Positions 12,803-45,850 of a stretch of DNA of 64,000 nucleotides are shown here, one piece after another. The position numbers were made by a program, and so were the translations under genes. Under the pieces are notes generated by a model. The model saw only the letters and a list, made by a program, of their open reading frames with translations. It made no database searches and had not been told where the DNA came from. The stretch comes from Candidatus Saccharimonadota bacterium (GTDB taxonomy: Bacteria; Patescibacteriota; Saccharimonadia; Saccharimonadales; Saccharimonadaceae). The stretch's first letter is position 1. Each line of letters begins with the position of its first letter. The DNA lies in the NCBI GenBank assembly GCA_017514975.1, contig JAFWIF010000014.1, positions 52,070 to 116,069 on the forward strand, read 5' to 3'.

Positions 12803-15800
12803 CTACTGAGCGACGCAGCGGACGGAGAGGCCGTCAGCCCTGTGACCGTAGAAGTTTCGGGGGCCGACGTTGCTACTGCCGAAGTACAGGCTGGGGGCGT
12901 AGCTCGTACCATTTGCGGTAGAAGACCAGAAGAAGCCTTGGCTGCCCTGATAGTACTGCGAGCCAGTGTAGTAGTAGTAGCCTGAGAAGGGGAAGCTAAA
13001 CGGAACGTTTTGCATTGTCGTGCTGCCAGTACTTCCGTTTAAGGCGTAGGTCGTCGTCAGTAGATTGTAGTAGCTCTTCGTTCCTGTATTACTTGGTAGT
13101 TGCCAGCCCTTCGGACATATCGACTGGTCAGCCTCCTCGCCGCTTCCCATTGTCGCTAGCCCTGTTCCTGCCGTTGCCGTATACCAGTTGTAAAGGTTGC
13201 CATAGGTCGTAGCTCTATCCGCGTAAGTTGCATGTTGCGAGAAATCATACATATGCTTGATGTTGGTCGTGTTGCTAGAACCACCTTCATTCCACGCAGC
13301 TCCTGCTTTAGTTTGCGCTGCTGGCATCGTAAAGTTTTGGCTGACGTTTGAATCTTGTGGGGTGAGAACGAGCGGATTCGCTTCGGTAGAATTGTCTCCA
13401 AGGTCGAGGTTTTGCGTCATCCAGCAGTTTCCATCGGCAAGTTTGGAGACAGTGTAGCTTTTGTTGTCGCGGGGGTCGAGAAGAGTGGCGGTGGGAACAA
13501 GGGAAGCGTCCGTAGAGTGCGTGGTTGTAGTGGTACGAGCGGAGACCGAGGGGGTGGTTTCGGCAGCACAGATGGCCGAAGTCATCTCTTGCATGGTCGT
13601 AATGCCGCCAAAAGTCGGGCCGCGTGGAGTCCATGATTCACCTTGCATGGTTTTTTCGACGGTGAGTTTTTCCCAGGTCGGATAGAGCGTAACGTCCGCA
13701 GAAGGCATAATGAAGGAGTCGTTGTTAATGGTGAGATCGGTCGGCGATACGACATGCCAGCCAGCGAAGACATAGTCGGCGCCGACGCAGGTCGGAGTTT
13801 TTTCGATAGTAACAGTCGTGCCGACGACGTAATGGTTGCCACTTGGCATGTTGGCAATACTAGTACAGGCGTCTGAAGAGGAAATGGTGCCAAAGACTAC
13901 ACCTTTTAGAGAGAAGGAGGGAGGGAGAGCGTTACTTGGAGTGACGAGCTTCGTGGCGGCAAAACCAAAACCAGCGAGAAAAGAGAGCGCGAGAAGGCGA
14001 AAAATAAATTTGCGAGTTTTGTTTGCGGCGAAAGAGGTTTTCTTCGAGCAAGACGCAATAGAGATGGGATTTACTATTCGCTTCGGAGCGAAACGGGAGC
14101 GACGCAAGCTTTTCAAGTGACTCATCGCGAGCTTGGTCCACGAAAACTTCTTGGCGAAAAGGAAGAAAGAAAGGACAGCGCCAGCAAGGAGGCCGGAAGC
14201 GATGAAGGGGAAAATGTTAGTAAAAGCAGCGGTTGGTGGGGTGCTGTTTTTTGACCAAGTGGCGACGATTTGGTTATTTTCCTTATAGGCGGACGCTTGG
14301 GCGTCGGTAGCAGAGCTGCCATAATCGAGGACAGCGGTGCGCTGATCGGTAACAGCAGAAGTGTAATCTTGGGGCACGACGACAGTAAAGAGATTGGCGA
14401 CTCTACCACTACCGTCAACAGGAGAAACAGCGTAACTTGCATCAGATGCGGACATATTAATCGTGTATTTTGTATCAGTGGAGATATTGGAGAGAGTGAG
14501 TTGTTGGTTGTGCTTTAGGTAGACCATACAGATGCGCCCGTAAGTACAGGTGGTGGGGTTTACGAAAGAAATGTTCCCGTTCCCGTAGCGAATACTGCCC
14601 TGGTCAAGACCAGAAAGCGCATAGGTTTCACCTTCGATGCCGTCACTAAAGTCGAAGATATAACGAAAATATTCGGAGGTGTTAGCGAGGTCGCCTTGGA
14701 CGAGGCTTTTTAAGGTCAGAGTGGTCTTTGGCGGATCGGAGAATTTGATTTTTACGACAACATTGCCGCTCGGCATAACGAAAGAACCATTGCTGGTGGC
14801 GGAGTTGCCCTCAACGGTGGCACCTTGGACGGTGTAGCTGAGGAGTCGGTAGCCGTCGAACGTTGATTGAGGGAGAGGCGAAATGAGATTAACGATGGAT
14901 CCTGGAGCGTAGTTGGTTTCAGAAGGGAGCGCAAAGCTACTCGGCGCGCGACCGTCGAAGACATAGGAAACTTTGTAGATATCGGCTTTAGACCAGGTTC
15001 CTTCAAGAGTAAGGTTTTTTGTAGGCATAACGAGAGTGTTGTTGGAAATGGTGGCGTCAGTAGTAGTCCAGCCGTTAAAGACGTAGCCGTCGACAGGAGC
15101 GGGCGTGGGGAGCTGAACAGAGAGACCAGATTGAATGGTCTGGCTAGCGGGGAGCTTGGCGGAGACAGGGGCGTCGCCGGTATAGGAGTAATTAAGCGTA
15201 TAGTTATCCGATGAACTTTCATCGCCGATATAAGCGTGGACGGTTTCGGAGAAGAAAGTGCCGTTTTGGTTTGCGATGGTGGCGGTATTAAAGAAATCTT
15301 GGCGGCTGACGGTGGTGGGTAGAGTTGGAGTCTTGGTCTTGATTTCATATTTTACAGTACAAGTTTCGCTGAGACCGGTAAGCTTAATGGTAGCGACACG
15401 AGTCGAGGCGTCGTAGGTCTTGCTGAGGGTGCTTTGGTTAGAGCAGCCTAGAGCCTGCTCGGTACCAAAAGCGAGAAAGGTGAGACCGTCGGGGATTTTA
15501 TCAGTAACAACAACGAGTCCACTTGCGTCATTTGGATTCGAGAAAGTACCATAATCGACAGTAAGGTAGTAGTCGAGAGCAGAATTCTCCTCGAGTCGAG
15601 TACCGCTCGTAACGTCGCCGTAGGCGAAAGATTGGTTGTCTCTGGTATCTTTAAACAGAAATGCTAGAAACGAGCAGGCAAGAAGCACGAGCGAAGCAAA
15701 GACGACGCAGAAGAATTGTTTCTGCTTTTTTGTTCTTCTAAATACCCCCCCCCTAAACGGGGATTTGCTCAAGGAATTTTGCCGACGAGCTCGGCAAAAT

Positions 15801-15817
15801 AGCGAAGATAAGGACAT
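12803..15817 (-). CDS. Composite surface protein: signal anchor, InlB-B/Listeria-Bacteroides repeats, a pilin-like Ig domain, an internal TM-basic loop-TM, and a C-terminal Fibrobacter-type (FISUMP) domain
   Basis: YVFNGWTT and YVFAGWHV repeat motifs; GDLANTSEYFRYIF; C-terminal DPRDNKSYTV...YGNLYNWYTA...CPKGWQLPS...FWSST...GLSVRCV. The RBS is AAGGAG with the ATG at 15817. Confidence 0.7.
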   Translation of the reverse strand: MSLSSLFCRARRQNSLSKSPFRGGVFRRTKKQKQFFCVVFASLVLLACSFLAFLFKDTRDNQSFAYGDVTSGTRLEENSALDYYLTVDYGTFSNPNDASGLVVVTDKIPDGLTFLAFGTEQALGCSNQSTLSKTYDASTRVATIKLTGLSETCTVKYEIKTKTPTLPTTVSRQDFFNTATIANQNGTFFSETVHAYIGDESSSDNYTLNYSYTGDAPVSAKLPASQTIQSGLSVQLPTPAPVDGYVFNGWTTTDATISNNTLVMPTKNLTLEGTWSKADIYKVSYVFDGRAPSSFALPSETNYAPGSIVNLISPLPQSTFDGYRLLSYTVQGATVEGNSATSNGSFVMPSGNVVVKIKFSDPPKTTLTLKSLVQGDLANTSEYFRYIFDFSDGIEGETYALSGLDQGSIRYGNGNISFVNPTTCTYGRICMVYLKHNQQLTLSNISTDTKYTINMSASDASYAVSPVDGSGRVANLFTVVVPQDYTSAVTDQRTAVLDYGSSATDAQASAYKENNQIVATWSKNSTPPTAAFTNIFPFIASGLLAGAVLSFFLFAKKFSWTKLAMSHLKSLRRSRFAPKRIVNPISIASCSKKTSFAANKTRKFIFRLLALSFLAGFGFAATKLVTPSNALPPSFSLKGVVFGTISSSDACTSIANMPSGNHYVVGTTVTIEKTPTCVGADYVFAGWHVVSPTDLTINNDSFIMPSADVTLYPTWEKLTVEKTMQGESWTPRGPTFGGITTMQEMTSAICAAETTPSVSARTTTTTHSTDASLVPTATLLDPRDNKSYTVSKLADGNCWMTQNLDLGDNSTEANPLVLTPQDSNVSQNFTMPAAQTKAGAAWNEGGSSNTTNIKHMYDFSQHATYADRATTYGNLYNWYTATAGTGLATMGSGEEADQSICPKGWQLPSNTGTKSYYNLLTTTYALNGSTGSTTMQNVPFSFPFSGYYYYTGSQYYQGSQGFFWSSTANGTSYAPSLYFGSSNVGPRNFYGHRADGLSVRCVAQ
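15745..15753 (-). repeat. G9 homopolymer (coding strand) inside the signal-peptide n-region; the frame is currently ON
   Basis: Counted directly as nine C on the plus strand. It encodes R-G-G in PFRGGVFRRTKK. Confidence 0.9.
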
Positions 15818-15867
15818 GGTGGAGACTCCTTGTTTTCGTATGTTTATTTTGACCTAATTGTATGCTT

Positions 15868-15928
15868 ATAGTAGCAAAATTCGTAGATTCCGTCAATGCT
15901 TGACTTTTTTGAATTTTTGTGCTATAAT
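15868..15928. promoter_or_regulatory. Back-to-back divergent promoters (cassette copy 1)
   Basis: Minus strand: TTGACG (15896..15891), 17 nt, TACTAT (15873..15868), then leader AGGTCAAAATAAACA (15855..15841). Plus strand: TTGACT (15900..15905), 17 nt, TATAAT (15923..15928). Confidence 0.5.
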
Positions 15929-15934
15929 GAGGAG

Positions 15935-15971
15935 ATAGTAGTGTCTTTAGATTCCTGAAGGCGCGGTTTTT
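15935..15971 (+). ncRNA. Candidate short hairpin-terminated transcript (copy 1)
   Basis: A 10-bp stem GTGTCTTTAG-ATTC-CTGAAGGCGC is followed by GGTTTTTGG, starting about 7 nt after the plus-strand TATAAT. Confidence 0.25.
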
Positions 15972-15974
15972 GGA

Positions 15975-17327
15975 TTAGGAGAGGGCGTCTTTGCGCTTTA
16001 AGAGAGTGTGGTATTGGACGGCAAAGCGATGACTTTCATCATCGATACGGGAAAGAAGTTTGGCAAGGTGGCTATCGGAGGGAAATTCGAGAAGGTGAAA
16101 TTGGTCGGGAGCGGCGAGTCGAGAGATTGGGGCTGAAATAGTTGTGGGATAGTAGATTTTGACGGGGGCGTTCTTGCCGTGGTCGCCACTTTTGTCGCGG
16201 GCAATAACGGGGATGTTTTCGGGAACGAGAAGGGGGAGGACGGCGGCAAGCTGGGCTTTGGAGCCGTCGAGGAGAATGAGATCGGGGCGACCCCAGTCGC
16301 TCAGATGACGGAGACGACGAGAAAGAACTTCGCGGAGCGATTCTGGATCGTTGTTTTGCTGTTTTTTTAGCTTGAAGCGACGATATTTAGTGCGATCGGC
16401 AACGCCATTGATAAAACATACCATTGAGCCAGTAACATTGGTGCCGGATTGGTGACTAATATCGTAACCCTCAATGCGAACGGGGGGCTGGTCGAGATTT
16501 AAGAGAGATTGAAGATCTTTTAGAGCTTGGTCGTTGGAAATGTCTAAAAATTCTTTGTCAGAAAAGACAATTTTAGTGCCGATACCTTTGATGCCAAACA
16601 GCTGATTGCGATATTTTGCTGCAAGTTCATAATCTTGATTTAGAGCCGCCTCGCGCATTAGTTTTTCTAGGTCGCGTAGTAATTTTTTGCGACTTCCCTT
16701 TAGATAAGAGACCAAACGGCGCAAGCTGCGACGATACTCGAGTGGAGTTGTTTTGCCGATTTCGATGCCTGGAGTCAAACCAAGATCAGTATCAAGAGTT
16801 TTGCGTCCGCTATAAGGGCGATCATAATACGGGAATACTTTGCGAAGAATGCGGAGAGCGCGCGTAATTGCGGTCTTGCCATAATACGGACCATAATAGT
16901 CGGCGCCGTCATCTTCTGGGTTGCGAGTAATTGTAAGATCAGGAACATCGGCTTTCATATTGATGCGAACATAGCTGACGCTTTTGTCATCACGGAGAAG
17001 AATGTTCCATTTTGGCTTGTAGCGCTTGATCATTTCGCTCTCTAAGAAAAGCGCATCCATCTCGGTATCGACTACGAGCCAATCGATGTCGGCAATTTCG
17101 GCGACGAGAGCACGCGTTTTGGGGTCTTTGCGTTCTGGGCTTTGAAAATATTGGCGAACGCGATTTCTAAGGATAGCGGCCTTGCCGACATAAATGACCT
17201 GACCAGTCGCATCTTTATGAAAGTAAACACCTGGCTCCTTAGGCAAAGCACGCAAGGTGTCGCGCAAGTGCTGAGACAAGCCACTGCGGCGGCGCCGAGG
17301 CTCGTGCGAAGTAGCGTCCGAGGACAT
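15975..17327 (-). CDS. uvrC: Excinuclease ABC subunit C, short form without the C-terminal HhH region
   Basis: GIY-YIG block (GVYFHKDATGQVIYVGKAAILRNRVRQYF), a UVR segment (YELAAKYRNQL), and an RNase H-like endonuclease region. The protein ends at 450 aa. Confidence 0.8.
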   Translation of the reverse strand: MSSDATSHEPRRRRSGLSQHLRDTLRALPKEPGVYFHKDATGQVIYVGKAAILRNRVRQYFQSPERKDPKTRALVAEIADIDWLVVDTEMDALFLESEMIKRYKPKWNILLRDDKSVSYVRINMKADVPDLTITRNPEDDGADYYGPYYGKTAITRALRILRKVFPYYDRPYSGRKTLDTDLGLTPGIEIGKTTPLEYRRSLRRLVSYLKGSRKKLLRDLEKLMREAALNQDYELAAKYRNQLFGIKGIGTKIVFSDKEFLDISNDQALKDLQSLLNLDQPPVRIEGYDISHQSGTNVTGSMVCFINGVADRTKYRRFKLKKQQNNDPESLREVLSRRLRHLSDWGRPDLILLDGSKAQLAAVLPLLVPENIPVIARDKSGDHGKNAPVKIYYPTTISAPISRLAAPDQFHLLEFPSDSHLAKLLSRIDDESHRFAVQYHTLLKRKDALS

Positions 17328-17330
17328 CTC

Positions 17331-19148
17331 TTATACCTTTTTGGCGGCGCGCTTACGTAGTACGGGGTCAAGTTCACGCTTTCTCAGGCGAAGGTTTTTC
17401 GGTGTAACCTCTAGCAATTCGTCGTCCATCAAGAAGTCTAAACATTGTTCGAGCGAAAGCTGCGTATGAGGAGTGAGCTGGATGGCGCCGTCGGAAGCGT
17501 GCGTGCGCATATTGGTGAGTTGCTTTTCGCGGCAGACATTTATATCGAGTTCGTCCTTTTTCGAAAGGCCAACAATCATGCCGCGGTAGACTTCGACTTG
17601 CGGCGGAATGTAGAGAATACCGCGCGCCTGAGCGGAGTCAAGAGCATAGGCGGTCGAAACGCCATTTTCGGAAGCAACCAAGGCGCCGTTTCGCTCTTGC
17701 TGGAAAGGCGCAGTAACAACTCGATAACCGCTCGGCAGACTATTCATAATAACCGTACCGCGAGTCTCGGTAAGGAGAGTATTGCGGAGACCGATAAGAG
17801 CAGCCGTAGTAATACGATATTCAAAACGAGTGCTGCCAGTTGGTAGGATTTCTTGAGACTTTAGGTCGGCACGACGACGGCCGAGTTCTTGAGAGACGGC
17901 GCCAACAAATTCGGTCGAAACCTCGATAGTTAAATCTTCGACCGGCTCCTCTTGATGACCATCAACGGTCTTGTAGACAACTTCGGGACGACCAACTTCG
18001 AGCTCGTAGCCTTCGCGACGAAGAGTCTCAATCAGGACAGAAAGATGAAGTTCGCCACGGCCAGAAACTTTGAAGCCAAGACCTTGAGGAGTAAGTTTGA
18101 GAGCAATGTTGGTTTCAAGCTCTTTTTTGAGACGATCGCCGATTTGGCGGGAAGTGGTAAAATCGCCTTCCCTGCCCTTTAGAGGTGAAGTGTTTGGGCC
18201 AATATAGATGCTCATCGTGGGAGCTTCAAGCTCGATTGTAGGGAGAGCTTCGGGATTATCGCCAGAAGCGATAGTGTCGCCAATACTGGCATCGGCAAGA
18301 CCAGCGAGCGCCACGATATCGCCGGCGATGGCTTCGGTTTGTTCCTCGCGAGTCAGACCACGATAAGTAAAAACGCGTTCGATTTTGCCCTTTTGAACAG
18401 TTTGGTCAGGCTTGATAATACTAACAACTTCACCGCGCTTTAATTTGCCGCGAAAAATTTTACCAATAGCATAGCGACCAAGATAACTGTCGGAAGCGAG
18501 AGCAGCGACGAGAAGTTGGGCGCCCTTCGAAGCATTGTCGTCGATGCGCGGGGCAGGAATTTCGTTGACGATTGCCTCGAAGATGACTTTGAGATCCTGA
18601 TCTAAATCGGTAGTTTTACCAGCGCGCCCGTCGCGCGCGATTGCGTAATAGACTGGATACTTGAGTTGGTCTTCGCTGGTTGCAAGCTCAAGGAAAAGAT
18701 CAGCAATCTCGTCTTCGACTGCGGCGATGCGAGCGGCAGGTTTATCGATTTTATTGATGACGACGATAGGCTTAAGCGATAGCTCGAGGGCTTTTTTGAG
18801 GACAAATTTGGTTTGAGGCATCGGGCCCTCTTGGGCGTCAACGATTAGGAGAACGCCGTCAGCCATATTAAGCGTACGCTCGACCTCGCCAGAAAAATCA
18901 GCGTGGCCTGGAGTATCGATGATATTAATCTTGTAGCCGTCGTAAAAAACTGCGGTTTGTTTCGCGGTAATAGTGATACCTCGCTCGTGTTCCTGGTCGC
19001 CAGAGTCCATGATGAGAGTTTGATTCATCTCGGCTTGGTTTTCACGGAAGGTGTTACTCTGTTTCAAGAGGGCGTCAACGAGCGTGGTTTTACCATGATC
19101 GACATGGGCGATAATAGCGACGTTACGAATGTTGAGAGAGTTTTGCAT
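17331..19148 (-). CDS. typA: Translational GTPase TypA/BipA
   Basis: [41 protein letters not shown], and a full-length BipA-like C-terminus. Confidence 0.9.
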
Positions 19149-19307: not shown

Positions 19308-19384
19308 TGGTGGGTCGTGCAGGAGTCGAACCTGCGACCTTATCTACGTCAAAGATACGCTCTAGCCAACTGAGCTAACGACCC
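19308..19384 (-). tRNA. tRNA-Val (anticodon GAC), CCA encoded
   Basis: The reverse complement folds as GGGTCGT/ACGACCC acceptor, TATCT-TTGACGT-AGATA anticodon arm, GCAGG-TTCGACT-CCTGC T arm. Confidence 0.9.
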
Positions 19385-19470
19385 GAACAAGTGAATTATA
19401 TCACGATTGCGAGGAGAGCGCAATCGAATGTCGCCGCCGTGGCGTTGTTTGCCTTGGCTCGCAAGAATGA

Positions 19471-22224
19471 TTATTTTGATTGGCGCAATCTTTGCGCGAT
19501 CAGTACGACGCCGCCGAGACTCGTGACGGCTACAGCAATCGCGCCGAGAGCGGGCCAGGCCTTGGTTGAGACAGTGAGACCAGTTGGAGGCGGGGCGGCC
19601 TTGGTGTTCGTGAAAGCGATGGAAATATCCGAGCCTAGAGAATTTATCGTGTAGCGTCGGCCGTTGGTACTAGTTTGTCCGACTTTGTAGCTTGTTTCGT
19701 AGCCGTCAGGGGCATAATCTACTTCTTCGATTTCAATCTTTGAGCCAGCCGGGAGAGTAGTGAGCTGTTTAATATTGCGATGCTTGAGCGTGAAGGTATA
19801 ACTGCCATCGTTGTTAGAAGTAAAGCCTTCGAAATTTGAGAGGTCGACAAGGTCACCGCTTCCGCCGTCTTTGGTAACCTTTATTTTATAGGTGAAATCT
19901 TTTGAGGTGTTGGCGAGGTCGCCTTTGACGAAGTTAGAGATTTCGAGGCCGTATGAAGACTTTGAGTTGACAAAAGTGGAAGTAATGTCGCTGTCGCCGA
20001 TAACGCCATGATCGTTGGTTTTCGAGGTCAGAGTCCAGCCTGTTTTGTTTTCTTCGATAATTTCATATTCATAGCCTTGCGGAAGCTGCAAGGTCTTGGT
20101 ACCGTTTTGCGGCAAGGAGAATGAATAGTAGCCGTTCTCATCGGGCTGACCAAAGAAAGAAGAGAGGTCGTATGGTTTTCTGTAGAGTAAACTAGATACT
20201 CCCTCGTTTCCTTCCGCGCCGCACACGAGGCTTGGACTTCTCCAACCATTTGGGTTCTCATACCAATAGCCGTCATCAGAATACCACTCACCGTATCCGC
20301 CAGCGCTATACCATTTATACTCGTTGATGTTTTTGCCATTGATATTTAGATCTATGGTACGCTGTAGTCCATTGAGGTAATTCCACATATCTAAAGCTTT
20401 CTCGAAGTCATCAGAATCACGAGTCTTGCTCTCACCCCAAACCGAGCGTCTATGCCCGCTCGCGGCGTCTATTAGTCTACCGTTAATCTTGGTGGTAGCA
20501 TCCGTAAGTCTTACCGTTATATTATGAGTAGAGCCATCATCCCCTTGGGAGTAAATATATTCCTCAAAATACACACAACCATAATCAAATGCTCTAACTT
20601 TATAATTAAATTGATCGCTCGTATTTATGTCGGTTTCTTTCTTAATAGTAAGATTTTGTTTGGGTATCTCTTCGAATACAACATTAATAATATAGTCCTT
20701 TTGTATATTGCTTAGACTATATAGACGATTCGTCTCGACAGACACATCGATGCCGACTCCGTCGACGGTTAAGCTTTTTATTCTGTATCCTTCGTTGGGC
20801 CGATAATATATATTCTTTGAGGCTCCGTAGGCAACGGTCGTAGATTCGGTAATTGTGCCATTAACGGCACTCGTAGTTATGTTGTACTTTGGAACGATTA
20901 TATACGGGTCAGCCGCTGTGCCGGTGCCACCGTCGTAGGTTGTACCGGGCCTTAGAGAGATGACTGGACGTACGCCGAGCAGAGAATAGTAGCCTGCAAG
21001 GTGGGTCGCCCAATCGTTCGTCATGGCGCCGCCTGGATTAAGACTAGCAACTGATACATACCTAACGTTAGGCACAGTATAGTGGCTTGGCGACATCGAC
21101 CAATAGGGCTCGCCCGTGTCACGGGCAGTGTTATTATTTATCATACTCATCTCGCTGGCGGTCGCTAATCCTATGGGGTAAGTTAGTTTTGCTTTTGTGT
21201 TTTCGACAGAAAATTGATCGGTCAAGTTCGTACAGCTATAATCGTTTGTAATGCCCGTAAACGTAAAATATGACCAAGTTCCGTTAGGATTCCAACCGCC
21301 AGAGTTGGTATTTTTTGGAGAACGATCATTGCAATAAACAGCGTCCTCTAAAAAGGCTGTGTATCCGGTTAAGTTGTTTCTGTACCAGTTATCGACTACC
21401 GTCTTGATAGCGCTATTGTTCGTATTAACATTATCTGCATAGAGCATATCGTGAATAGCTTGCTCAATGGTCTTACCGCCACTAAGTTCGATATACCAAT
21501 CGCTTCGGTGATAGTATCTTACGGTCTCACAAGTACCAGTACCGTTATTGCAGCTATAGTGATGAGTATTGTCTATGTATACGTCAGTATCAATCAAGGT
21601 ATATACGCCATTAGAATATGCGACTCCATTGCCAGCTAAAGTTCCGCTGGCGGGCGCGCCATACTTGTCTGGATATTGAACATTATACATATAACCAGCA
21701 TTAGCCAACGATGGAGTGCTAGCATTAGATATCCAAGTTTTGTTAATAATGCCTCCATAGGGCATACTGCACGTGGCTGAAGACGTGGAGTTGCCATTAT
21801 AAAGAAGTTTTATGCCGCCAGTATCGGTCGTTCTTATCATCTGCCAACACTTGCCGGCAAACACAACATTCCATTTATCCAAAAGCTGCTTGCCCTGCGT
21901 TGTGTCGTTTTCGATTGGGGTCGTAAAGTAATAGATGTCTTTTGGGCCTGCGCCAGCTAAAGTATCGTTGTGTGCGCCAGTATATTTGGCGGCGAGACCA
22001 CCTGTTTCGGCTTCGTTTTTAATAACGTTATAGAGGAGATTTTCGGGTTCGCTTGTATTGCTTGATTCGGCATGAGAATGACGAGTTGCGAGGAGAATTG
22101 CGCCAGTGGCGACGACGAGAAGGACGGAGAAAAGCGAAAAGAAAAGAAGTTTGCGTTTTTTGGTAAAGTTGCTGCTTCTTCTATGTGATATTAACCCCCC
22201 CCCATTACGCAAAAAGATTCCCAT
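19471..22224 (-). CDS. Large surface protein: Cys-rich N-terminal domain, pilin-like Ig domains, PPTG-type C-terminal sorting signal
   Basis: Start moved to the ATG at 22224 because the track start (TTG at 22296) is the promoter -35 box. Signal anchor KKRKLLFFSLFSVLLVV; GDLANTSKDFTYKIKV; C-terminus PPPTGL plus TM plus RLRQSK. Confidence 0.7.
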   Translation of the reverse strand: MGIFLRNGGGLISHRRSSNFTKKRKLLFFSLFSVLLVVATGAILLATRHSHAESSNTSEPENLLYNVIKNEAETGGLAAKYTGAHNDTLAGAGPKDIYYFTTPIENDTTQGKQLLDKWNVVFAGKCWQMIRTTDTGGIKLLYNGNSTSSATCSMPYGGIINKTWISNASTPSLANAGYMYNVQYPDKYGAPASGTLAGNGVAYSNGVYTLIDTDVYIDNTHHYSCNNGTGTCETVRYYHRSDWYIELSGGKTIEQAIHDMLYADNVNTNNSAIKTVVDNWYRNNLTGYTAFLEDAVYCNDRSPKNTNSGGWNPNGTWSYFTFTGITNDYSCTNLTDQFSVENTKAKLTYPIGLATASEMSMINNNTARDTGEPYWSMSPSHYTVPNVRYVSVASLNPGGAMTNDWATHLAGYYSLLGVRPVISLRPGTTYDGGTGTAADPYIIVPKYNITTSAVNGTITESTTVAYGASKNIYYRPNEGYRIKSLTVDGVGIDVSVETNRLYSLSNIQKDYIINVVFEEIPKQNLTIKKETDINTSDQFNYKVRAFDYGCVYFEEYIYSQGDDGSTHNITVRLTDATTKINGRLIDAASGHRRSVWGESKTRDSDDFEKALDMWNYLNGLQRTIDLNINGKNINEYKWYSAGGYGEWYSDDGYWYENPNGWRSPSLVCGAEGNEGVSSLLYRKPYDLSSFFGQPDENGYYSFSLPQNGTKTLQLPQGYEYEIIEENKTGWTLTSKTNDHGVIGDSDITSTFVNSKSSYGLEISNFVKGDLANTSKDFTYKIKVTKDGGSGDLVDLSNFEGFTSNNDGSYTFTLKHRNIKQLTTLPAGSKIEIEEVDYAPDGYETSYKVGQTSTNGRRYTINSLGSDISIAFTNTKAAPPPTGLTVSTKAWPALGAIAVAVTSLGGVVLIAQRLRQSK
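22195..22203 (-). repeat. G9 homopolymer in the signal-peptide n-region; the frame is currently ON
   Basis: Nine C on the plus strand. It encodes GGG in MGIFLRNGGGLISH. Confidence 0.9.
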
Positions 22225-22267
22225 CTGTTTTTTCTTTCTTTGTTTATTTTGACCTAAGCTTGGTTTT

Positions 22268-22328
22268 AGGATAGCATAGAGTTTTGATTCCGTCAATGCT
22301 TGACATTTTTTAGTTTTTGTGATAGGAT
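22268..22328. promoter_or_regulatory. Back-to-back divergent promoters (cassette copy 2)
   Basis: Minus strand: TTGACG (22296..22291), 17 nt, TATCCT (22273..22268), leader AGGTCAAAATAAACA (22255..22241). Plus strand: TTGACA (22300..22305), 17 nt, TAGGAT (22323..22328). Confidence 0.5.
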
Positions 22329-22334
22329 AGAAAG

Positions 22335-22371
22335 ATGAATGCCTCGAGGCGACGAGAGGTGAGGGTTTTTT
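22335..22371 (+). ncRNA. Candidate short hairpin-terminated transcript (copy 2)
   Basis: AGAAAGATGAAT, then a GCCTC-10 nt-GAGGT stem, then GAGGGTTTTTT. Confidence 0.25.
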
Positions 22372-22421
22372 GATAGTTTGGTTGAGTTATATGCTTGGTG
22401 CGAAGAGCGTTTTTGCGGACT

Positions 22422-24940
22422 TTAAGCTTTGCGCCTAATGAGAAAGATGGCGGCGAGGAGGCCAGCAAGGCTTGAGCCGAGAATAATGAAGGGGAGCTTG
22501 AGGGCAGATTTTGAGTGATCGGAAGTTTTTGGGTTAGAGTCTAGGGATTTCGGAGTAGTAGCCTGACTGTGCTCTATAGTCGTGGTGTTTTTTGAATCTT
22601 CGGTGATTTCAGTGTTTTGTGTAGGATTGTCTACAGGTTTTTCTGCGGGGGATTGATCTTTTTGCCAGTTAGCAGTGAAAGTTTTGTCGCCAGTAGTGCC
22701 TTTGGGGATTTGAAGCTGCTTTTGAGGAGGAGAGTTTGGGTCATCAGCGTCAGTCCAGCCGAGAAAAGTGTAACCTGGGCGGGCAGGAGTAGCGAGAGTG
22801 ATAGTGTCGGATTCGATAGTGTAGACAGAAGGATTGTCGGGGGAGTTGGTGGCGGGGCTGGTTGGGCCGTCTGGGCTAGAGGAATCGTCAGGATTAGCGG
22901 GGGCGTCATTGAGATTGTAGGTGATTTGATAGTTGATGGTCTCCCAAGTTGGCGCAATGGTGAGGTTTGAGGTGACACTATCGTAGGACTTGTTCCAAGC
23001 TTTGAAGGTATAGCCGGTTTTGGTGGGGCTGACGGGAGGGGTGGCGGAGGAGCCATAGGGAATGGTTTCGGTTTTTAAGGCAGTGCTTTCGTCATCAGTG
23101 AAAGTAACGGTGAAGATACGTTTATTGGCGAGGAAAAGCTTGACCCCCTCGGTGTCGGAATTTGAGATGGTGAATTCGGGACTGATGAGAGCCTCTTGAT
23201 CCTGGTCGTAACATTGAGTAGCAGAGTTCGGGCAGGAGTCGGCGCTAGCGGAGAGAGAGTAGACGGAACTAGCGGGGGCGGTCTGGACAAGGCGATAGGT
23301 GCCAGTGCCGAGGTTTTGGAAATCTACCTGACCGTCGGAATTGGTTTGGCGAGAGAGAGGATTGCTGTCGTTTGGAGTATAATCCTGCCAAGTGATATCG
23401 TTGCCAGTTCCCTGTTTGAGCTGAAGCTTTAAGGTTGCGTTTTCGAGAAGACGCTTGGTGTCGCTATCCGAAACGAAGGCGGAGACGGAGAAAGTTGGAG
23501 GAGTAACGATAGCGCTAGGATCGATACTTTCGATAGTGACGGTACGAGTGCTTGGCTTTGATGACACGCCGTTACGGGTAATGACGGCGGTCGACTGGAA
23601 GGTGCGGTCCTCTAGAGCGGTACCATAATCGCAAGCAACGTACGCGGTGCTGTATGGGTTTTGCCCCAATGCGCTATTTTCGCCAAATGCAGAGAGGTAA
23701 GCTTGGACGAGGCGGCCGTAATCCTCGGCGTCGGCGTAGCCGTTATTGATGTGGTACTTTGCGGCCTTGTCTGCCCATGCTTCGGCGCTTTGTTGCGGAG
23801 TGTCGATCCCGACACGACCATGATAGATAATAAAAGTCATAGAATCGCCGTTATTATAGTAGCCGTATTGGCGCGGAGTCGCGGTAACTCGAGATTTAAA
23901 ATCGCTATACGATTCGTTAGATGTGGGCTTTATTTCTGTGTATTCGCCGGTGATGGTGGCATAGTTGTAGTTAGAGCTTGATAAAGTGAGGTCGTCTAGG
24001 TCGTAAACTATACGAGCAGACGCAATAATTGAGTGGATATTCATAGCGATTGCATCTTGGCAAGTAATCTCGATGTAAGTATCGGACGGCTCTGGAGAAT
24101 AGCTGTCCCCTTCAGACTCGAAAAGACTTTTTTCGATAGCGTGCGCAGTGCCATCGACGTAATAGTAGACCGCTCTGTTATTGGATTTGGTAGAGAGGTT
24201 ATAGCCGTTGTGTATAGAGAGAGGATTAAGCGTGCGTGGATTAACGAAAAAGTTGATTGAGGTTTCGGGCTGATTGTTGAGACGAATTTGAGTATAACGA
24301 AAATCGTTGTTGCCGATTGGATGGAGAGTGCTACCTGTGTTGATGTGGATATTCTGCGCGCCAGAGCGCCCAGCCATGTTTTCATTAAAGACAAAGCGGA
24401 TAAGTGGTTCGCCGTCCGGAAAGACAGTATAAGAACCGACAGTCGTGCCGGATTCGCCAATAACAGGAACGGCGCCCGAAGCGACTCGCGAGACACTGCC
24501 CTTAGTAGACTTCAGGGCGATATCTACAGTATCGTTGCCAGTGAAGGTGGCGCCGTGCTTTAGGGACAAGTCTAATACTAGGCTCAGCGCGGTAGCTTCG
24601 GAAGTATTAGACTTGACCGGATAGTCGTCGGGATTCGTGGAAGCGTTTTCGCCAAGGATAGTGCTGATTTCGCCATTGGTAGCGCCAGTTAAGGTGTAAC
24701 TTTTAAGGGTTACTTCTGCTTCGAGAGACTGAGCAGAAGTAGCCGGGGCTATTAAAGCTACGAAGGAGAAAGATAAGGTCAAAATTGAGATAATGAAGAA
24801 TGGTTGAAGTTTGCGGAGTTTGAGAAGAATGTGGGGAGTTTGGATTTTTGGCTTTCTCGAGAAGCCAGATACTATGGTGTTTAGTAGACTTTTATACCCC
24901 CCCCCATGGAGATTAATGCGGTGCGAAATAGAGAGAACAT
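22422..24940 (-). CDS. MSCRAMM-like adhesin, phase-variable and currently frameshifted (OFF) at a G9 tract
   Basis: AAGGAG plus the ATG at 24940 opens MFSLFRTALISMGGG and stops 5 codons after the tract. The large ORF 22422..24782 is in the +1 frame relative to that ATG. It contains a Cna-B/SpaA-like domain, two Listeria-Bacteroides repeats, and NPKT plus TM plus RRKA. Confidence 0.65.
24897..24905 (-). repeat. G9 homopolymer that puts the adhesin gene out of frame
   Basis: Nine C on the plus strand. There are 158 nt between the upstream ATG and the first codon of the long ORF, which is 2 mod 3, so G10 or G7 would restore the frame. Confidence 0.9.
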
Positions 24941-24992
24941 GGCGTGGAGACTCCTTTGTTTTTATTGTTTATTTTGACCTTGTTATTGTTTT

Positions 24993-25092
24993 AGAGTAGC
25001 AGAGTTCTTTGATTACGTCAATGCTTGATAATTTGTTAGATTATTTTATTATAATGGTTTTGCTTGACATTTTTGGGGTTTTGTGATACAAT
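24993..25092. promoter_or_regulatory. Divergent promoters (cassette copy 3, with a duplicated plus-strand -35 region)
   Basis: Minus strand: TTGACG (25021..25016), 17 nt, TACTCT (24998..24993), leader AGGTCAAAATAAACA (24980..24966). Plus strand: TTGACA (25064..25069), 17 nt, TACAAT (25087..25092). Confidence 0.5.
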
Positions 25093-25098
25093 AGAAGG

Positions 25099-25147
25099 AT
25101 GTAGCGCCTCGAGGGAGCGAGAGGCGTGGGGTTTTGGTGGTTTTCGG
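25099..25147 (+). ncRNA. Candidate short hairpin-terminated transcript (copy 3)
   Basis: AGAAGGATGTAG, then a CGCCTC-10 nt-GAGGCG stem, then TGGGGTTTTGGTGGTTTT. Confidence 0.3.
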
Positions 25148-25156
25148 AGGCAAAGT

Positions 25157-27451
25157 TTAGCGACGGCGTTTGATGAGTTTATAGCCGAGAATGATACAGG
25201 GAGAAGAGAACAGAGCGGTAAAGATGGGGCCGAAAGGTGAGGCGGCGATGGTTTTGGGATTATCGACGGTAGCTTCTGGGTTTTGCTGAGCAGGTGCGGG
25301 GTTTTGAGTTTCCGGAGAGTCGGTCGAGCTAGAGCTTGAGGTCAAGTCTTGGTCGGCGGGATCAGCAGGAGTATTAGGGTCGGCGTCGTCAGGATTAGTA
25401 ATTTCGCCTGGATTGACTGGATTATTGGGATTAGTTGTGTCGTCGACGGGAGCGACATCTGGGAGCGAAAGTACTGGCCATGATTTGGTTTGATTTTCGT
25501 CGATATTTTCCCACGAATCGTTGATGACCGCCTCTGATTGATCTTGGTTGGTTAGCTGAAGGTATAGGCTGATCTGGTCATTATCGAAACTGGCTCGGGG
25601 GACTGACAACTCTGTAATGACAACACCATCACTGTTCTGGTTAATGGATTTTGTGAGCGACAAGGTATTGCTCGTGATAGAATTTTTAGTCGATGTGATC
25701 GTATGGGTCTTATTGGCATCTTGTAGTTCAATGCGAACCTGATCGCCGTTTGTAAAATCTTGGTCGTAGTGCTCGATGAGAAAATAAACTTTTTCGTGAT
25801 CGACGCAAGTTTTTAGATGGGCCTGAGCCTGGCTTTTTGAGCCCACAAATAAGGATTGTTGGACGTTTGACCAGTCGGATGGGGAGCCGTCTACTACGGG
25901 AGCGCAAACGTCGACAGTGTATGAATGGTTGAGGTGGACTTTACGATAATTGATGGAGCGAGGGGAGCTGGAATTAGTGCTAGAACTGGAATCGGGATAG
26001 ACCGCAAGGAGATCGTCGGCGTCATCTAGCTCGATAGAACCCCACGAGCCACCTTCTAGGACGAGCTGGTGGCTTGACTGAGGGTCGCCAATAATGCCGG
26101 CATAGAACTTTCCTTGCGTATTATAGCTAACGACGACTTCGCCTGATGGAAATTGCTGAACGTAAGGCGCGGCACCTGGAGCGGAAAACTGACTGAAAGC
26201 TTGGGAGTCGCCGGAGTAATTGGCGCGATTGCGAGGATCGTTTATTGCAGGATTTTCGCGTAAGCTATTTTCGCGCAAATCGGCAAGACTAATCCCAGAA
26301 GCGTTCTTGAAATCATAATTTTGACTATAAGTCGAGGTCGAGATACTATAGCCGCTCGGAAGCTGATAATTATCAGTCAGAGACCACATTTCGAAAGCAT
26401 AGAGAATGCGGCCGTCGATAAGCTTGGTTGCAACTGGCATCTGGGCAGTATAATAATTGACGTCTGAATTGGCAGTTTCGCTAAAAAGCGTACCGGTATA
26501 ATGGTAGGCTAAAGCGGAGCCCTGAGTCCAAGTTTTGCCGTTGTCGCTCGAGACGATAACGCCAACAGCGCCAGTGTTGTGTTTTACTAACTCATTGCCG
26601 TTCGCGTCCTTGACGCTAGCGCGATTATTGTTAATACCATTAGAAAACGCCATGACGATTTCGTCGCCATTTAAGATAGCGTGAGGCTCCCAAGGAGTAG
26701 TATTGTCGTGATAGATAGTTTGACCAATATCGAAACTGTGGCCTGTGGGGGTGCCATCAGGATTGATTGAAGGTATTATTTCCCCGCTGTCAAAAATTAG
26801 TTTTCCGGTTGATTCGTTGAGCCGAGCGCGTTTCGCAACGAGGCCATTTAGTTCGACGTGTGTACTTAAATGATGGAATGAACGATAAGCTGCATATACA
26901 AGCAGCGAGCCATCTTTCAAAGGAAGAGCGTCGCAGTTTTGGAAGACGCGAAAATCACGGCCAACGGCATTTTCTTGTACAAGGCTTGGCGCATGGTAGG
27001 CAAAGGATTCCCAAATAATTTCTGGGGTTGTCCAGGTTTTTAGATCCTTACTGGTAGAGTATTGAATCACAGTACCGTTTGAGTTTGGGTAAATACCGGT
27101 CACGCTAGGTGATGATGGATAGTTCCCGGCGTGCCAAAATAAAATATAGGTATCGCCTAGTTTTTTTAGGCGAGGATATTGTTTGATCAGGCGTTCATTT
27201 TCGGGGGTATTATCGTATAGAGACGAGAACGGGAGATGCCCTAAAGAGCGAAAATCTGGCTCTAGATTGGCGTTAGTTGCAACCGTCGCCTTGGCTGAGG
27301 AGTCAAAATTTGAAGCAAACAAAAAACCAAGACTGCCGATAAATACAAAGACTAGAACCGCAAATATGGTTTTTGGGATTTTAGACTGGAGGGGCGTTCT
27401 TTTAGCAGACTTCCTCTTTAAAAAATCGAATTCGCCATGCAAGCATCGCAT
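25157..27451 (-). CDS. Surface-anchored BNR/Asp-box beta-propeller glycosidase (sialidase-like) with a CBM9-like module
   Basis: Asp-boxes STSKDLKTW and SSDNGKTW; C-terminal DGSPSDWSNV...HEKVYFLIEH; a P/D/T-rich linker; NPKT plus TM plus KRRR. Confidence 0.6.
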   Translation of the reverse strand: MRCLHGEFDFLKRKSAKRTPLQSKIPKTIFAVLVFVFIGSLGFLFASNFDSSAKATVATNANLEPDFRSLGHLPFSSLYDNTPENERLIKQYPRLKKLGDTYILFWHAGNYPSSPSVTGIYPNSNGTVIQYSTSKDLKTWTTPEIIWESFAYHAPSLVQENAVGRDFRVFQNCDALPLKDGSLLVYAAYRSFHHLSTHVELNGLVAKRARLNESTGKLIFDSGEIIPSINPDGTPTGHSFDIGQTIYHDNTTPWEPHAILNGDEIVMAFSNGINNNRASVKDANGNELVKHNTGAVGVIVSSDNGKTWTQGSALAYHYTGTLFSETANSDVNYYTAQMPVATKLIDGRILYAFEMWSLTDNYQLPSGYSISTSTYSQNYDFKNASGISLADLRENSLRENPAINDPRNRANYSGDSQAFSQFSAPGAAPYVQQFPSGEVVVSYNTQGKFYAGIIGDPQSSHQLVLEGGSWGSIELDDADDLLAVYPDSSSSTNSSSPRSINYRKVHLNHSYTVDVCAPVVDGSPSDWSNVQQSLFVGSKSQAQAHLKTCVDHEKVYFLIEHYDQDFTNGDQVRIELQDANKTHTITSTKNSITSNTLSLTKSINQNSDGVVITELSVPRASFDNDQISLYLQLTNQDQSEAVINDSWENIDENQTKSWPVLSLPDVAPVDDTTNPNNPVNPGEITNPDDADPNTPADPADQDLTSSSSSTDSPETQNPAPAQQNPEATVDNPKTIAASPFGPIFTALFSSPCIILGYKLIKRRR

Positions 27452-27504
27452 CGTTCTGTCCTTTTTTGATTCTTTGATGTTTATTTTGACCTTGTTATTG
27501 TTTT

Positions 27505-27533
27505 AGAGTAGCAGATTTTGAGGATTTCGTCAA
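27505..27533 (-). promoter_or_regulatory. Cassette copy 4 promoter (unidirectional)
   Basis: TTGACG (27533..27528), 17 nt, TACTCT (27510..27505), leader AGGTCAAAATAAACA (27492..27478). The TGA stop of the upstream 1622-aa gene lies inside the -35 box. Confidence 0.5.
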
Positions 27534-42298: not shown

Positions 42299-45200
42299 AT
42301 GCTTTTTCGAGGTGCCCCTAAAAAGGCGAAACTTACGAAACTACGTTTATCTATCCTAATTTTCGCCTTCGCTGTTATCGGCATCGCAATAACCAGTGTC
42401 GCGCTTGAGTCGAAGGCTCGCCTCTCTGCCTTTGCTGACACCTATCAAACTATTGCTGCGCCTAGCGTTAACAATGGCGCATCCTTTGACAACTATACAT
42501 TGACTCCCGACAACTCGAGTATTGCCGACCCCACAATCCTAAAAGACGGTAATTCGTATTACATCGCAAAGACTACGAGCTGGCGCGGCGTGTATATTCA
42601 TAAATCTGACGATTTTAAAGACTGGAAAACTGGCTTTTATGGACTCTCCTGTAATGCTAATTTCACCGGTAGCGGCGACGATACGCGCATTACGCAATTT
42701 TCCTGTCCTGGTCACGATTTTACTAGCGAGCTGTCTAGTGGCCAGACGGGGGTTGGCTTCTGGGCGCCAGAGATTTACAAGCACAATAATAAATTCTATC
42801 TTTTAGTGACTTATATGCCGACGTTCGGCAATGCTCCTCGCGACCGCTATGCTCAACTGTATCTTGCCGAAGCTGATACACTTTCTGCTGGTAGTTTTAC
42901 GAACTTTCGACATATCGATGTGGCTGCTCAGCACGTTATCGATGGTAATCTGTTCTTTGATGATGATGGACGCATCTATCTCTATTTCAAAGACGAAAGC
43001 GAAGCTAATAATTGGACAATTAAAGTCGTCGAACTCGATGCGAACTTCAACCGCAAGACCGCTCCAAAAATCGTCTTAAATAGCAAGGAGCTCGGTTGGG
43101 AAAGTAGCTTCAATGAGGGGAGTTGGATGATGAAAAAGAATGGCACTTACTATCTAATGTATTCGGCGAATTATTATAAATGTACTGACTACGAAATCGG
43201 TTACGCGACTGCGACCTCGCCAACCGCACTCTTTGAAAAACAAAACACTGCGTTCCCGCTCCTAAGCGGTTATGATGCGAATCTTAAATGTGCTCGCAAT
43301 AACGGCGAGATGGGTTCATGGGATAGCGACAATCATGTCTATGGCACTGGCCATCATTCTGTATTAAAAGTTTCCGAAGATGAATATTATATACTCTATC
43401 ACTCAATCAACTACAATGATGGCAGCCCGGCGACTTTAGACGAGAAATATAAGAATCGTCGCCTAAATGCCGACCGCCTCGGTTTTGATAGCAATGGTCG
43501 CATTTTCGTCAACGGTCCTACCACGCGTAAGCAGCCCCTACCCTCTGGCACAAACGGCTTCTATCAACTTTCTAATAACTACTATTCTCTAAACGCTAGC
43601 GGTAGCACTAATGCCGACGTCCTCCGCGATAAAATCAACTACAATTCGAAAAACACCGCTGAAGTCTTTAATGCCGCCCCGACCTCTACCGTCGGCTCGC
43701 TTACTACCGATACTTTAACTTATACGCTCAACAAACGCATGGATATTGCGGACATCTGGCTCTATGCTAACCCTGCCAAGTCCGAACTCTCGCGTATGCA
43801 GACCAGTACTGCCCAAGGCGCCGCACCAAACTTTTCGGGTGTTACCGCCGACGTCATAATAAACAACCAGTACATCATGCAGGACGTTAACCTCGGTAAT
43901 GATGCTGTTGCAAAAATTCAACTCCCCAATGCTAGTCAAATTCCTACGCATATTGGCACAATCAAAGTAAAACTCTCCAAAGCTACGCCTTTGACCGAGA
44001 CCATCCTCGTCTCAAACACTCTCAAGACTTACGAAGACCCCGTATCATTCTGCGCTATCACCTTCGACGCTAACGGTGGAAATACTGCCTCGACGCAGCT
44101 TGTCAGTTGCGGCGGCTCTCTGTCAAATCTCCCCTCGTCAAGTCGCGACGGCTATACTTTTGACGGCTGGTATACTGCTAAAACAGGCGGCAATAAGCTC
44201 ACGACCGCCACTGTCATCAATAACGACATCGTTTACTACGCTCACTGGACGCAGAACCCAACAATCAATGCGCAATGTAGCGATATCGACTACGGCGAAA
44301 TCGTATTTATCGGTGATTCATATGGTAATGCCTATAATGCCGAAAATTTGCGCACCAATGTAATTGAAAAGTCATGGCCAAACCAAACGGCCGCTCTTCT
44401 CGGCGCGCAAAATTTCGTCAATATGTCCTACGGCGGAGCGGGCTTTGCAAGAAGTGCAAATAGCGTCGCGGACACCTATTTTGACACAATGATTGGCCTC
44501 ACCGCAGATAAAGTCTCTGATAAAGCAAAGGTTCGTTGGATTGTAACTCAGGGCGGCTATAACGATCAAAGCAAAAGCTCGACCGACATCCTCGCTCATG
44601 CTGCCAACTTCTCGTCAGCTGCTACGAGTCTGTATCCAAATGCTCGACTTGCAATCGGTATGATTGGCTGGGATTTACGCGAAAATATCCAGAACCAAAT
44701 CACCAACAATTCTCTACCGATATACCGAACCATCGCTGAAGATTATGGCATGCAATATATCGACGGTTCCGATACGACTCTTCATAATCGCCCAGAATAT
44801 TTCTCAAACGACAATTTCCATCCGAACGTTACTGGCGAGCTTGCCATCGCCGAACATACCGCAAACTTTCTCTGTGAGAATACCCTCAATATTAATTATC
44901 ATGTCGGCAATGAACTGAGCAAAACTATCTATACGACAGGAAAAACCAATAAAGTCAAGAGCATTTCCTCGACCGCTAGCCGCAGCTTTAAAGGTTGGGC
45001 GACTAGTCCTGACGGCGCAGTGAAGTACGCGGGCAATACACTCATTAACGACGACTTCATTAAGGCCAATAAAGTCGTTGACCTCTATGCGGTCTTTGCA
45101 GACATTCATTCCGTTGCCTTCACCGACGGCCAAGGCAACACTCTCAAGACCGAAGCCGTCGAGCATGGCTCTTCTGCTACTCCGCCTGCTAATCCTAGCC

Positions 45201-45850
45201 GTCCCGGTTATACCTTTGCTGGCTGGAATAAATCCCATGATAATATTGCATCTGACACCGTGATTGAGGCCGCATGGACTCCTCACGTTCTCTATGTCCG
45301 CTACAACGCCAACGGGGGCATCATGGCCGAAGAACACGATAGCAACATCAGCCTTGATCAAGACGGCTGGGTCGTCAACACTAACGTTGGTTGGGCTAGC
45401 GACGAAGCCGGCAATTACCGCGGTCGCTTTGGTGCTTATGGTGGCAGTATACTCAATACCGGTCTTACCGATTACAATAACTCTAACTATCTTAACCTCA
45501 TTCGCGCAGGTCATCATATTGAGAAAGGTAAGGAATGGAACACTAAGCCAGATGGTACAGGCATCAGCTATAATCAAGCCACCGTTTATCAAGTGTCAGA
45601 CCTCGCCGACCTCGCTCATTCCGACCAAACCCTTATCCTATACGCCAATTGGCAACAAGACCCTGTGGAAAAACCTGTGGAAAACCCTACTGCTCAACCC
45701 TCTTCGCAAAATAATTCTCAGAAAGCTAAAGCCGCTATCAGCAACCCTAAAACTGCCAGTAGCGACAGCCTCCTCAAGCTTATCGTCGCCGCTCTTGTCG
45801 GCTCCAGCACGCTCGCTGCTCTCTACTTTATATTTCTCCGTCGCCGTTAA
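42299..45850 (+). CDS. Surface-anchored multi-enzyme: GH43-like propeller, Listeria-Bacteroides repeats, SGNH/GDSL esterase, NPKT sorting signal
   Basis: FWAPEIYKHNNKFYL and NEGSWMMKKNGTYYLMYS (GH43-like); DGYTFDGWYT and PGYTFAGWNK repeats; VFIGDSYGN...GGYND...DNFHPN (SGNH); C-terminus NPKTAS plus TM plus RRR. Confidence 0.7.
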   Translation: MLFRGAPKKAKLTKLRLSILIFAFAVIGIAITSVALESKARLSAFADTYQTIAAPSVNNGASFDNYTLTPDNSSIADPTILKDGNSYYIAKTTSWRGVYIHKSDDFKDWKTGFYGLSCNANFTGSGDDTRITQFSCPGHDFTSELSSGQTGVGFWAPEIYKHNNKFYLLVTYMPTFGNAPRDRYAQLYLAEADTLSAGSFTNFRHIDVAAQHVIDGNLFFDDDGRIYLYFKDESEANNWTIKVVELDANFNRKTAPKIVLNSKELGWESSFNEGSWMMKKNGTYYLMYSANYYKCTDYEIGYATATSPTALFEKQNTAFPLLSGYDANLKCARNNGEMGSWDSDNHVYGTGHHSVLKVSEDEYYILYHSINYNDGSPATLDEKYKNRRLNADRLGFDSNGRIFVNGPTTRKQPLPSGTNGFYQLSNNYYSLNASGSTNADVLRDKINYNSKNTAEVFNAAPTSTVGSLTTDTLTYTLNKRMDIADIWLYANPAKSELSRMQTSTAQGAAPNFSGVTADVIINNQYIMQDVNLGNDAVAKIQLPNASQIPTHIGTIKVKLSKATPLTETILVSNTLKTYEDPVSFCAITFDANGGNTASTQLVSCGGSLSNLPSSSRDGYTFDGWYTAKTGGNKLTTATVINNDIVYYAHWTQNPTINAQCSDIDYGEIVFIGDSYGNAYNAENLRTNVIEKSWPNQTAALLGAQNFVNMSYGGAGFARSANSVADTYFDTMIGLTADKVSDKAKVRWIVTQGGYNDQSKSSTDILAHAANFSSAATSLYPNARLAIGMIGWDLRENIQNQITNNSLPIYRTIAEDYGMQYIDGSDTTLHNRPEYFSNDNFHPNVTGELAIAEHTANFLCENTLNINYHVGNELSKTIYTTGKTNKVKSISSTASRSFKGWATSPDGAVKYAGNTLINDDFIKANKVVDLYAVFADIHSVAFTDGQGNTLKTEAVEHGSSATPPANPSRPGYTFAGWNKSHDNIASDTVIEAAWTPHVLYVRYNANGGIMAEEHDSNISLDQDGWVVNTNVGWASDEAGNYRGRFGAYGGSILNTGLTDYNNSNYLNLIRAGHHIEKGKEWNTKPDGTGISYNQATVYQVSDLADLAHSDQTLILYANWQQDPVEKPVENPTAQPSSQNNSQKAKAAISNPKTASSDSLLKLIVAALVGSSTLAALYFIFLRRR

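Follow-up and report, generated by a model that had tools for sequence, protein, structure and literature searches.

The Opa (PII) genes of Neisseria reportedly carry CTCTT repeats in the region coding for the signal peptide, an arrangement that Murphy et al. 1989 are said to have described. In Cutibacterium (Propionibacterium) acnes, too, putative adhesin genes are said to have homopolymeric C/G tracts at their 5' ends. PMC4746626 proposes homopolymeric tracts of C. acnes as a basis of phase variation, and PMC4965091 counts 29 phase-variable loci with G/C tracts of at least 7 nucleotides (nt) in Campylobacter jejuni NCTC11168. We found no description of contingency loci in Saccharibacteria, Patescibacteria or the Candidate Phyla Radiation (CPR) in the literature searched (PMC, bioRxiv), where the nearest case is a hypervariable 9-mer repeat gene in Gracilibacterium (PMC6851277). 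Here we describe a 64-kb stretch of DNA (the window; contig JAFWIF010000014.1, positions 52,070 to 116,069) from an organism of the Saccharibacteria (TM7) that is probably a rumen member of the group, in a sample probably taken from a ruminant gut metagenome. Three of its genes for predicted surface proteins, A, B and C, each carry a run of nine G residues (G9) near the start codon. We consider it probable that the G9 run of gene B is a simple-sequence contingency locus, subject to classical slipped-strand phase variation.

The three genes and their tracts are given below, with coordinates of the window.

Gene A, 12803..15817, minus strand: 1004 amino acids (aa); Flg_new/Flg_new_2 and a C-terminal Fib_succ_major (Pfam).
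G9 tract A, 15745-15753, minus strand: from nt 65 of gene A, read AGG GGG GGG GTA, in frame (ON).
Gene B, 19471..22224, minus strand: 917 aa, ATG at 22224; Flg_new_2 and DUF7601.
G9 tract B, 22195-22203, minus strand: codons 8-10 of gene B, in frame (ON).
Gene C, 22422..24940, minus strand: ATG at 24940; Flg_new and SpaA, with NPKTS, a transmembrane (TM) segment and RRKA.
G9 tract C, 24897-24905, minus strand: from nt 36 of gene C, out of frame (OFF).

Tract B is C9 on the plus strand and G9 on the coding (minus) strand. Gene B begins ATG GGA ATC TTT TTG CGT AAT GGG GGG GGG TTA (MGIFLRNGGGL), and the position, frame and sequence assigned to the tract in a first-pass annotation of this DNA, which had read the gene as ON, were borne out. 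When the length of the run was edited in silico, gene B remained full length at G6, G9 and G12. At G8 the product was 10 aa long and at G10 it was 14 aa long (...GTT AAT ATC ACA TAG), in agreement with the earlier statement that a slip of one nucleotide in either direction ends translation within a few codons. Over the range G6-G12 in the three genes, ON lengths gave proteins of 838-1005 aa and OFF lengths gave peptides of 10-51 aa.

To the earlier account we add that the third tract is out of frame. At G9, translation of gene C stops after 19 codons with the product MFSLFRTALISMGGGIKVY*; G10 or G7 restores a protein of 839 or 838 aa, respectively, and past the tract the frame is otherwise intact, as an 824-codon open reading frame (ORF). 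The present consensus state of the three genes is A ON, B ON and C OFF.

A further ATG overlaps tract B (22204-22206 plus the tract; A-ATG-GGGGGGGG, or A-ATG-G8). Because this ATG, which has no Shine-Dalgarno sequence, is in frame with the long ORF at G10 (MGGGLISHRR..., 911 aa), G10 in gene B may be leaky rather than fully tight OFF. It may be an alternative start and so alter the set of productive lengths, which is the situation in the Firmicute family described below. Tract C is likewise overlapped by an ATG (CC-ATG-G8).

A census of homopolymers in the window found three G/C runs of at least 7 nt, each a C9 on the plus strand; the longest of the remaining G/C runs are 6 nt, among them those at 2466-2471, 16482-16487 and 41835-41840, with none of 7-8 nt. 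Two claims of the first-pass annotation, that by eye no other tract of such length occurs in the window and that three tracts of equal length within 10 kb sit at equivalent positions in surface genes, are both upheld. All three tracts are on the sense strand, 22-65 nt past the ATG and ahead of the basic and hydrophobic segment of the signal peptide. Under an order-1 Markov model, 0.046 runs of at least 9 nt are expected in 64 kb, compared with 3 observed, and the Poisson probability of at least three such runs is ~1.5e-5; both the census and the expectation cover 64 kb of the genome. TRF detected no simple-sequence arrays in the window besides the G9 tracts and returned trivial two-copy repeats only. 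As a background control we used 217 kb of related Saccharibacteria DNA (neighbourhoods of BipA relatives), in which G/C runs of at least 7 nt numbered 0.

Among the Gly codons of 15 long ORFs in the window, GGG is used least (8.7%, compared with 50% for GGC), and the three tracts are read differently, as R-G-G-V in A, as G-G-G in B and out of frame in C. The tracts are therefore maintained at the level of the nucleotide sequence and not of the protein. Since the readings differ, a Gly3 motif acting at the protein level cannot explain the runs.

The tracts precede proteins that are predicted to be displayed at the cell surface. Adhesin-type Pfam modules are spread across A, B and C, comprising Flg_new/Flg_new_2 (the Listeria-Bacteroides repeat), SpaA and DUF7601. 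Past its tract, gene B encodes a basic n-region (KKRK) followed by a hydrophobic signal/anchor segment, and the C-terminus of the protein has a PPPTG motif, then a TM segment, then a basic tail. Three further genes of the window encode proteins of related type.

Gene D, 25157..27451, minus strand: 764 aa, NPKTI anchor; shares the promoter module described below and lacks a G tract.
Gene E, 42299..45850, plus strand: 1183 aa; GH43, Flg_new and GDSL, NPKTA anchor; lacks a G tract.
Gene F, neighbouring: 1624 aa; SpaA, FctA and DUF7601 (Pfam).

The C-termini of B through E have a short motif, a hydrophobic segment and a basic tail. This is the layout of sortase substrates, for which reason B, C, D and E are taken to be cell-surface proteins, as the first-pass annotation had assumed. 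The motifs themselves are non-canonical (PPPTG in B, NPKTS in C, NPKTI in D, NPKTA in E), and protein A has no such signal. NPKT[S/I/A] may be a recognition motif of a lineage-specific sortase. In the C-terminal regions of C, D and E (22422-22530, 25157-25260 and 45745-45850) an RRR/RRK tail follows the hydrophobic segment.

Proteins of the window are present in NCBI under the name Candidatus Saccharibacteria bacterium (MBR3163933, MBR3163936, MBR3163937, MBR3163938, MBR3163948), on a 159-kb contig of a metagenome-assembled genome. The B protein there (941 aa) begins at a TTG at 22296, which coincides with the opening TTG of the -35 hexamer TTGACG of its promoter. Gene C is called as a 786-aa protein from an internal TTG at 24782, since at G9 its true start leads into another frame. 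These calls look wrong, and the architecture of the switch would account for the way in which automated annotation mishandles the G-tract genes. When just the leader of C (90 aa) was used as a protein query, no homologue came up at E<=1; this says no more than that the leader is apparently lineage-specific. Matches of gene C in representative genomes are mostly to Flg_new repeat modules in giant proteins, with no informative orthologue among them.

Genes A through E share a promoter and 5' untranslated region (5'UTR) module of ~80 nt. The module consists of AAGCATTGACG (containing the -35 hexamer TTGACG), a 17-nt spacer ending in TGC, a -10-like hexamer, and an invariant 5'UTR element AGGTCAAAATAAA(C/A)A. 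Five copies occur in the window, each before a gene for a surface or secreted protein, and in three of the five (A, B and C) the gene also carries a G9 tract. A search of JGI metagenomes gave one genuine match, a sixth copy that is not accompanied by a G tract.

Module of A, 15841-15903, minus strand: TTGACG-17-TACTAT.
Module of B, 22241-22303, minus strand: TTGACG-17-TATCCT, extended -10 TG, then the conserved AGGTCAAAATAAACA.
Module of C, 24966-25028, minus strand.
Module of D, 27478-27540, minus strand.
Module of E, 42213-42274, plus strand.
Sixth copy, unrelated metagenome contig L031, 858-913, minus strand: before an ordinary secreted protein without a G tract.

Against species-representative genomes the module gave only 12 single chance matches in unrelated phyla. 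No Rfam family matched the invariant 5'UTR element, which could be a regulator or ribosome-loading site common to a secretome regulon. With the same module and no tract, gene D counts as a constitutive paralogue of the tract genes. The sequence surrounding each tract is not conserved, and the six module-bearing sequences stop aligning past the Shine-Dalgarno sequence. Since the leaders are unrelated, the tracts are not copies of one duplicated segment, and each has been maintained independently. The alignment of D and E past the Shine-Dalgarno sequence is too poor to judge whether they hold remnants of decayed tracts.

A comparison outside the Saccharibacteria is offered by the database proteins closest to B. 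Residues 57-444 of B (window 20893-22056) form an un-annotated domain of ~390 aa that is 44% identical to a domain present in three copies in Firmicute proteins such as P0002. Named homologues are mostly proteins from metagenome-assembled genomes (MAGs) labelled 'Bacilli bacterium', which suggests an adhesin domain shared across phyla by gut Firmicutes and a member of the Saccharibacteria. We analysed five homologue-bearing contigs from human and other gut metagenomes (L032-L036; 28-30% GC), which have SpoIID and CotZ neighbours and are therefore assigned to the Firmicutes. Their homologues make up a family of very large surface proteins, of which we met no description, although no literature search was aimed at it. 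The N-termini looked like a single leader called from differing starts, and the reason lies in the DNA, where a poly-G run of variable length, G(n), separates the start codon from the signal peptide: ATGAGGTTTGTAAAGAAAAATACGAACAAATGTATGACCT-G(n)-T(G/A)CTTTTAAATAGGAAGGG. In 5/5 loci this poly-G has the sense orientation, and each locus, of 16-24 kb, contains no other G/C run of at least 7 nt.

L032, 10041-10049: poly-G, G9.
L033, 9992-10001: poly-G, G10.
L034, 9953-9962: poly-G, G10.
L035, 4253-4260: poly-G, G8.
L036, 6092-6099: poly-G, G8.

Two pairs of contigs represent the same locus. L032 and L033, from different Hadza samples, are 91-98% identical and differ in having G9 and G10, and L034 and L035 are 95-96% identical and differ in having G10 and G8. 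A poly-G run ahead of the signal peptide of a B-related adhesin is thus demonstrably length-polymorphic in nature. With two ATGs lying upstream in different frames, two of the three frames yield full-length protein in these loci: G9 and G8 are productive, and G10 is null. The design shared with gene B could reflect convergence or transfer.

In the mechanism we propose, slipped-strand mispairing on the G9 run during replication would add or remove one G. A change of one G would shift the frame before the signal peptide, giving a peptide of 10-14 aa and no export (OFF), and a change of three would add or remove one glycine in a dispensable leader and leave the gene ON. A, B and C, each with its own copy of the module and its own G9, would switch independently, so that cells in up to eight surface states would coexist in one population. 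The benefit would likely lie in hedging attachment, whether to host bacteria or to plant fibre, or in evading phage or host defence. Tract length, frame-breaking placement, over-representation and a surface target are all as in a contingency locus. A useful rate of length change in this organism, the binding targets of the proteins, and actual switching with the 2^3 repertoire that would follow from it belong to the model, which is read from sequence. The suggestion in the first-pass annotation of combinatorial surface variation gains from the upkeep of the runs in the DNA, the ON/ON/OFF state, the common module and the Firmicute polymorphism, and loses from the constancy of tract length among assemblies.

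Several observations weigh against phase variation at these genes. No length variation was found in this organism among ENA/NCBI and Logan assemblies, which give G9 wherever a tract is covered. Logan contig SRR12529289 (listed for 2 samples) is an exact match to 19336..24995 with G9 at B and C, Logan contig SRR31077494 (listed for 4 samples) is an exact match to 13439..18918 with G9 at A, and ENA scaffold XIEF21-1_SAMN15830024 scaffold_118 (L013) is identical to the window over the 21.8-kb part compared. Among the proteins that cluster with A, B and C at 90% identity, none is an alternative-frame version. All three tracts are G9, and established phasomes usually show a spread of tract lengths. 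The leader and signal sequences of the Firmicute proteins do not align with those of B and are not homologous to them; we therefore treat the Firmicute tract as an analogue of tract B, without demonstrable homology, and not as proof for the Saccharibacteria tract. The Shine-Dalgarno sequence of B (GAAAGAAAAAACAGATG) is weak compared with AAGGAG or AAGGA in A, C, D and E, and the expected level of expression of B is for this reason uncertain even when the gene is ON. The part of this genome covered is the 64-kb window.

Identical lengths in all assemblies of the organism, protein clusters in a single frame and three equal tracts are also what would be seen if the tracts were real but static leftovers that confer no useful switching, with A and B simply expressed and C a recent frameshift pseudogene. 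We regard this as unlikely. With 0.046 runs expected, three at the same functional position in three paralogues would still need explaining; the use of a rare GGG codon points to retention at the DNA level; the tract is the sole lesion of gene C; and the analogous Firmicute tract is polymorphic in length. Consensus assemblies report the majority length, so that minority lengths are hidden, and the collections hold no strain of the same species for comparison (the nearest BipA is 84% identical). The source of the data bears on whether the runs, or their exact length, might instead be errors introduced in assembly or by Illumina two-colour chemistry. The window was assembled from short metagenome reads, and NovaSeq reads 'no signal' as G. 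The 'XIEF21' label makes it probable that the sample belongs to the catalogue of the ruminant gastrointestinal tract by Xie et al. 2021, for which PCR-free libraries were sequenced as NovaSeq 150-bp reads and assembled with MEGAHIT. PCR-free libraries in the probable source study speak against an artefact, as do unique and well-assembled flanks inside long ORFs and the independent Logan assemblies, one of them from a different run accession, that give G9 at 100% identity over 5.5-5.7 kb. Artefactual poly-G sits at read ends and not as intragenic 9-mers, and we consider this explanation very improbable.

The strand of the runs, sense in 3/3 window genes and in 5/5 Firmicute loci, is compatible with an effect on expression that leaves the DNA unchanged. 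RNA polymerase slippage or ribosomal frameshifting on G9 would then mix the frames and create non-heritable heterogeneity, with C partly expressed and A and B partly silenced. Transcriptional slippage in several bacteria is favoured by long homopolymers (~9 or more), although A/T runs make up most of the well-documented cases. Folding predicted no stimulatory RNA structure around the three tracts (z-scores -0.75, -0.94 and +1.53), and the Firmicute DNA differs in length between samples, which is the signature of replication slippage. We judge that an explanation by such slippage in place of DNA change is quite improbable, and replication slippage and transcriptional or ribosomal slippage are not mutually exclusive. 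Sense-strand location in all cases and the nearby conserved 5'UTR element AGGTCAAAATAAACA would also fit a run with a function other than switching, for instance as a Gly-Gly-Gly motif of the leader, as a structural element of the RNA or as an mRNA site bound by a protein. This is the least probable of the explanations considered: the tracts are in different reading frames, one of them out of frame; GGG is the rarest of the Gly codons; and D, E and the L031 module work without any tract. The idea of an RNA element was rejected, as Rfam matched tRNAs only and folds around the tracts were no better than those of shuffled sequence.

The genome context places the tract genes in regions that differ from those of relatives. 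The best relatives of the BipA encoded in the window (17331..19148), at 80-84% identity, are from other Saccharibacteria MAGs. The MAGs of these relatives (L018, L027, L028) share the gene order uvrC-secG-SBP (uvrC-(holin)-secG-SBP) and lack the large surface genes. In the relatives bipA is on the opposite side of the uvrC-secG-SBP block, so that the order of uvrC and bipA differs from that in the window. Gene A lies between uvrC and secG, and a four-gene block F-D-C-B (within 19471-32404) lies upstream of bipA; both look like lineage-specific insertions. A Fibrobacter origin, which the Fib_succ_major domain of A might suggest, was rejected, as NCBI protein names, BipA relatives and synteny all indicate Saccharibacteria. 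At the right end of the window, 60037-63009 (plus strand) encodes a protein of 990 aa in which a YobI-like P-loop NTPase domain was recognised (E = 4e-64); it is unrelated to the G9 tracts.

Cultivated Saccharibacteria are epibionts on other bacteria, and CPR organisms depend on attachment to host bacteria. In cultured models, epibiotic growth requires adhesins (PMC10633639). If the three adhesin-like genes do carry stochastic switches, these would mark their products as proteins under fluctuating selection and as candidates for recognition of the host or substrate. That an obligate epibiont CPR lineage varies its display of sortase-type adhesins combinatorially through a small poly-G phasome is possible, if rather doubtful. 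Such a phasome would allow hedging between bacterial hosts or substrates, or evasion of phage and of the defences of host bacteria. It would be the first contingency-locus system in the CPR, so far as the literature searched extends, and would extend simple-sequence contingency loci to a non-pathogen lineage with a very reduced genome. Recurrence of the poly-G design on a homologous Firmicute domain would, if real, point to cross-phylum exchange or to convergence of a switchable adhesin.

Among described systems, the phasome of Campylobacter jejuni (PMC4965091) is alike in having intragenic G/C runs of at least 7 nt, translational ON/OFF control, and independent loci that combine into 'phasotypes'. 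Its targets are mostly enzymes of surface-glycan modification, with varied tract positions and lengths, whereas the window genes encode predicted surface proteins themselves and have the tract, invariably G9, within the leader ahead of the signal peptide in every case. Switching has been measured in Campylobacter jejuni, whereas the window genes are known from sequence alone. The Opa system of Neisseria corresponds in its adhesin paralogues, each with a repeat in the leader-peptide coding region, and in independent switching and combinatorial display. It differs in using a pentanucleotide repeat and in acting on outer-membrane beta-barrels of a Gram-negative organism; the window has a homopolymer and proteins of monoderm type, with a signal peptide and a sortase-like anchor. 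C. acnes is a Gram-positive-type organism in which homopolymeric tracts are associated with surface or adhesin genes; it belongs to another phylum, and the proteins are unrelated. The Firmicute family (L032-L036) shares with B the ~390-aa domain (44% identity) and a poly-G before the signal peptide that is the sole long G/C run; it differs in its observed G8/G9/G10 polymorphism, its two upstream ATGs and leaders that are not homologous to that of B. The mechanism proposed is a textbook one, and what is new is the lineage, an uncultured rumen member of the Saccharibacteria, together with the set of target genes.

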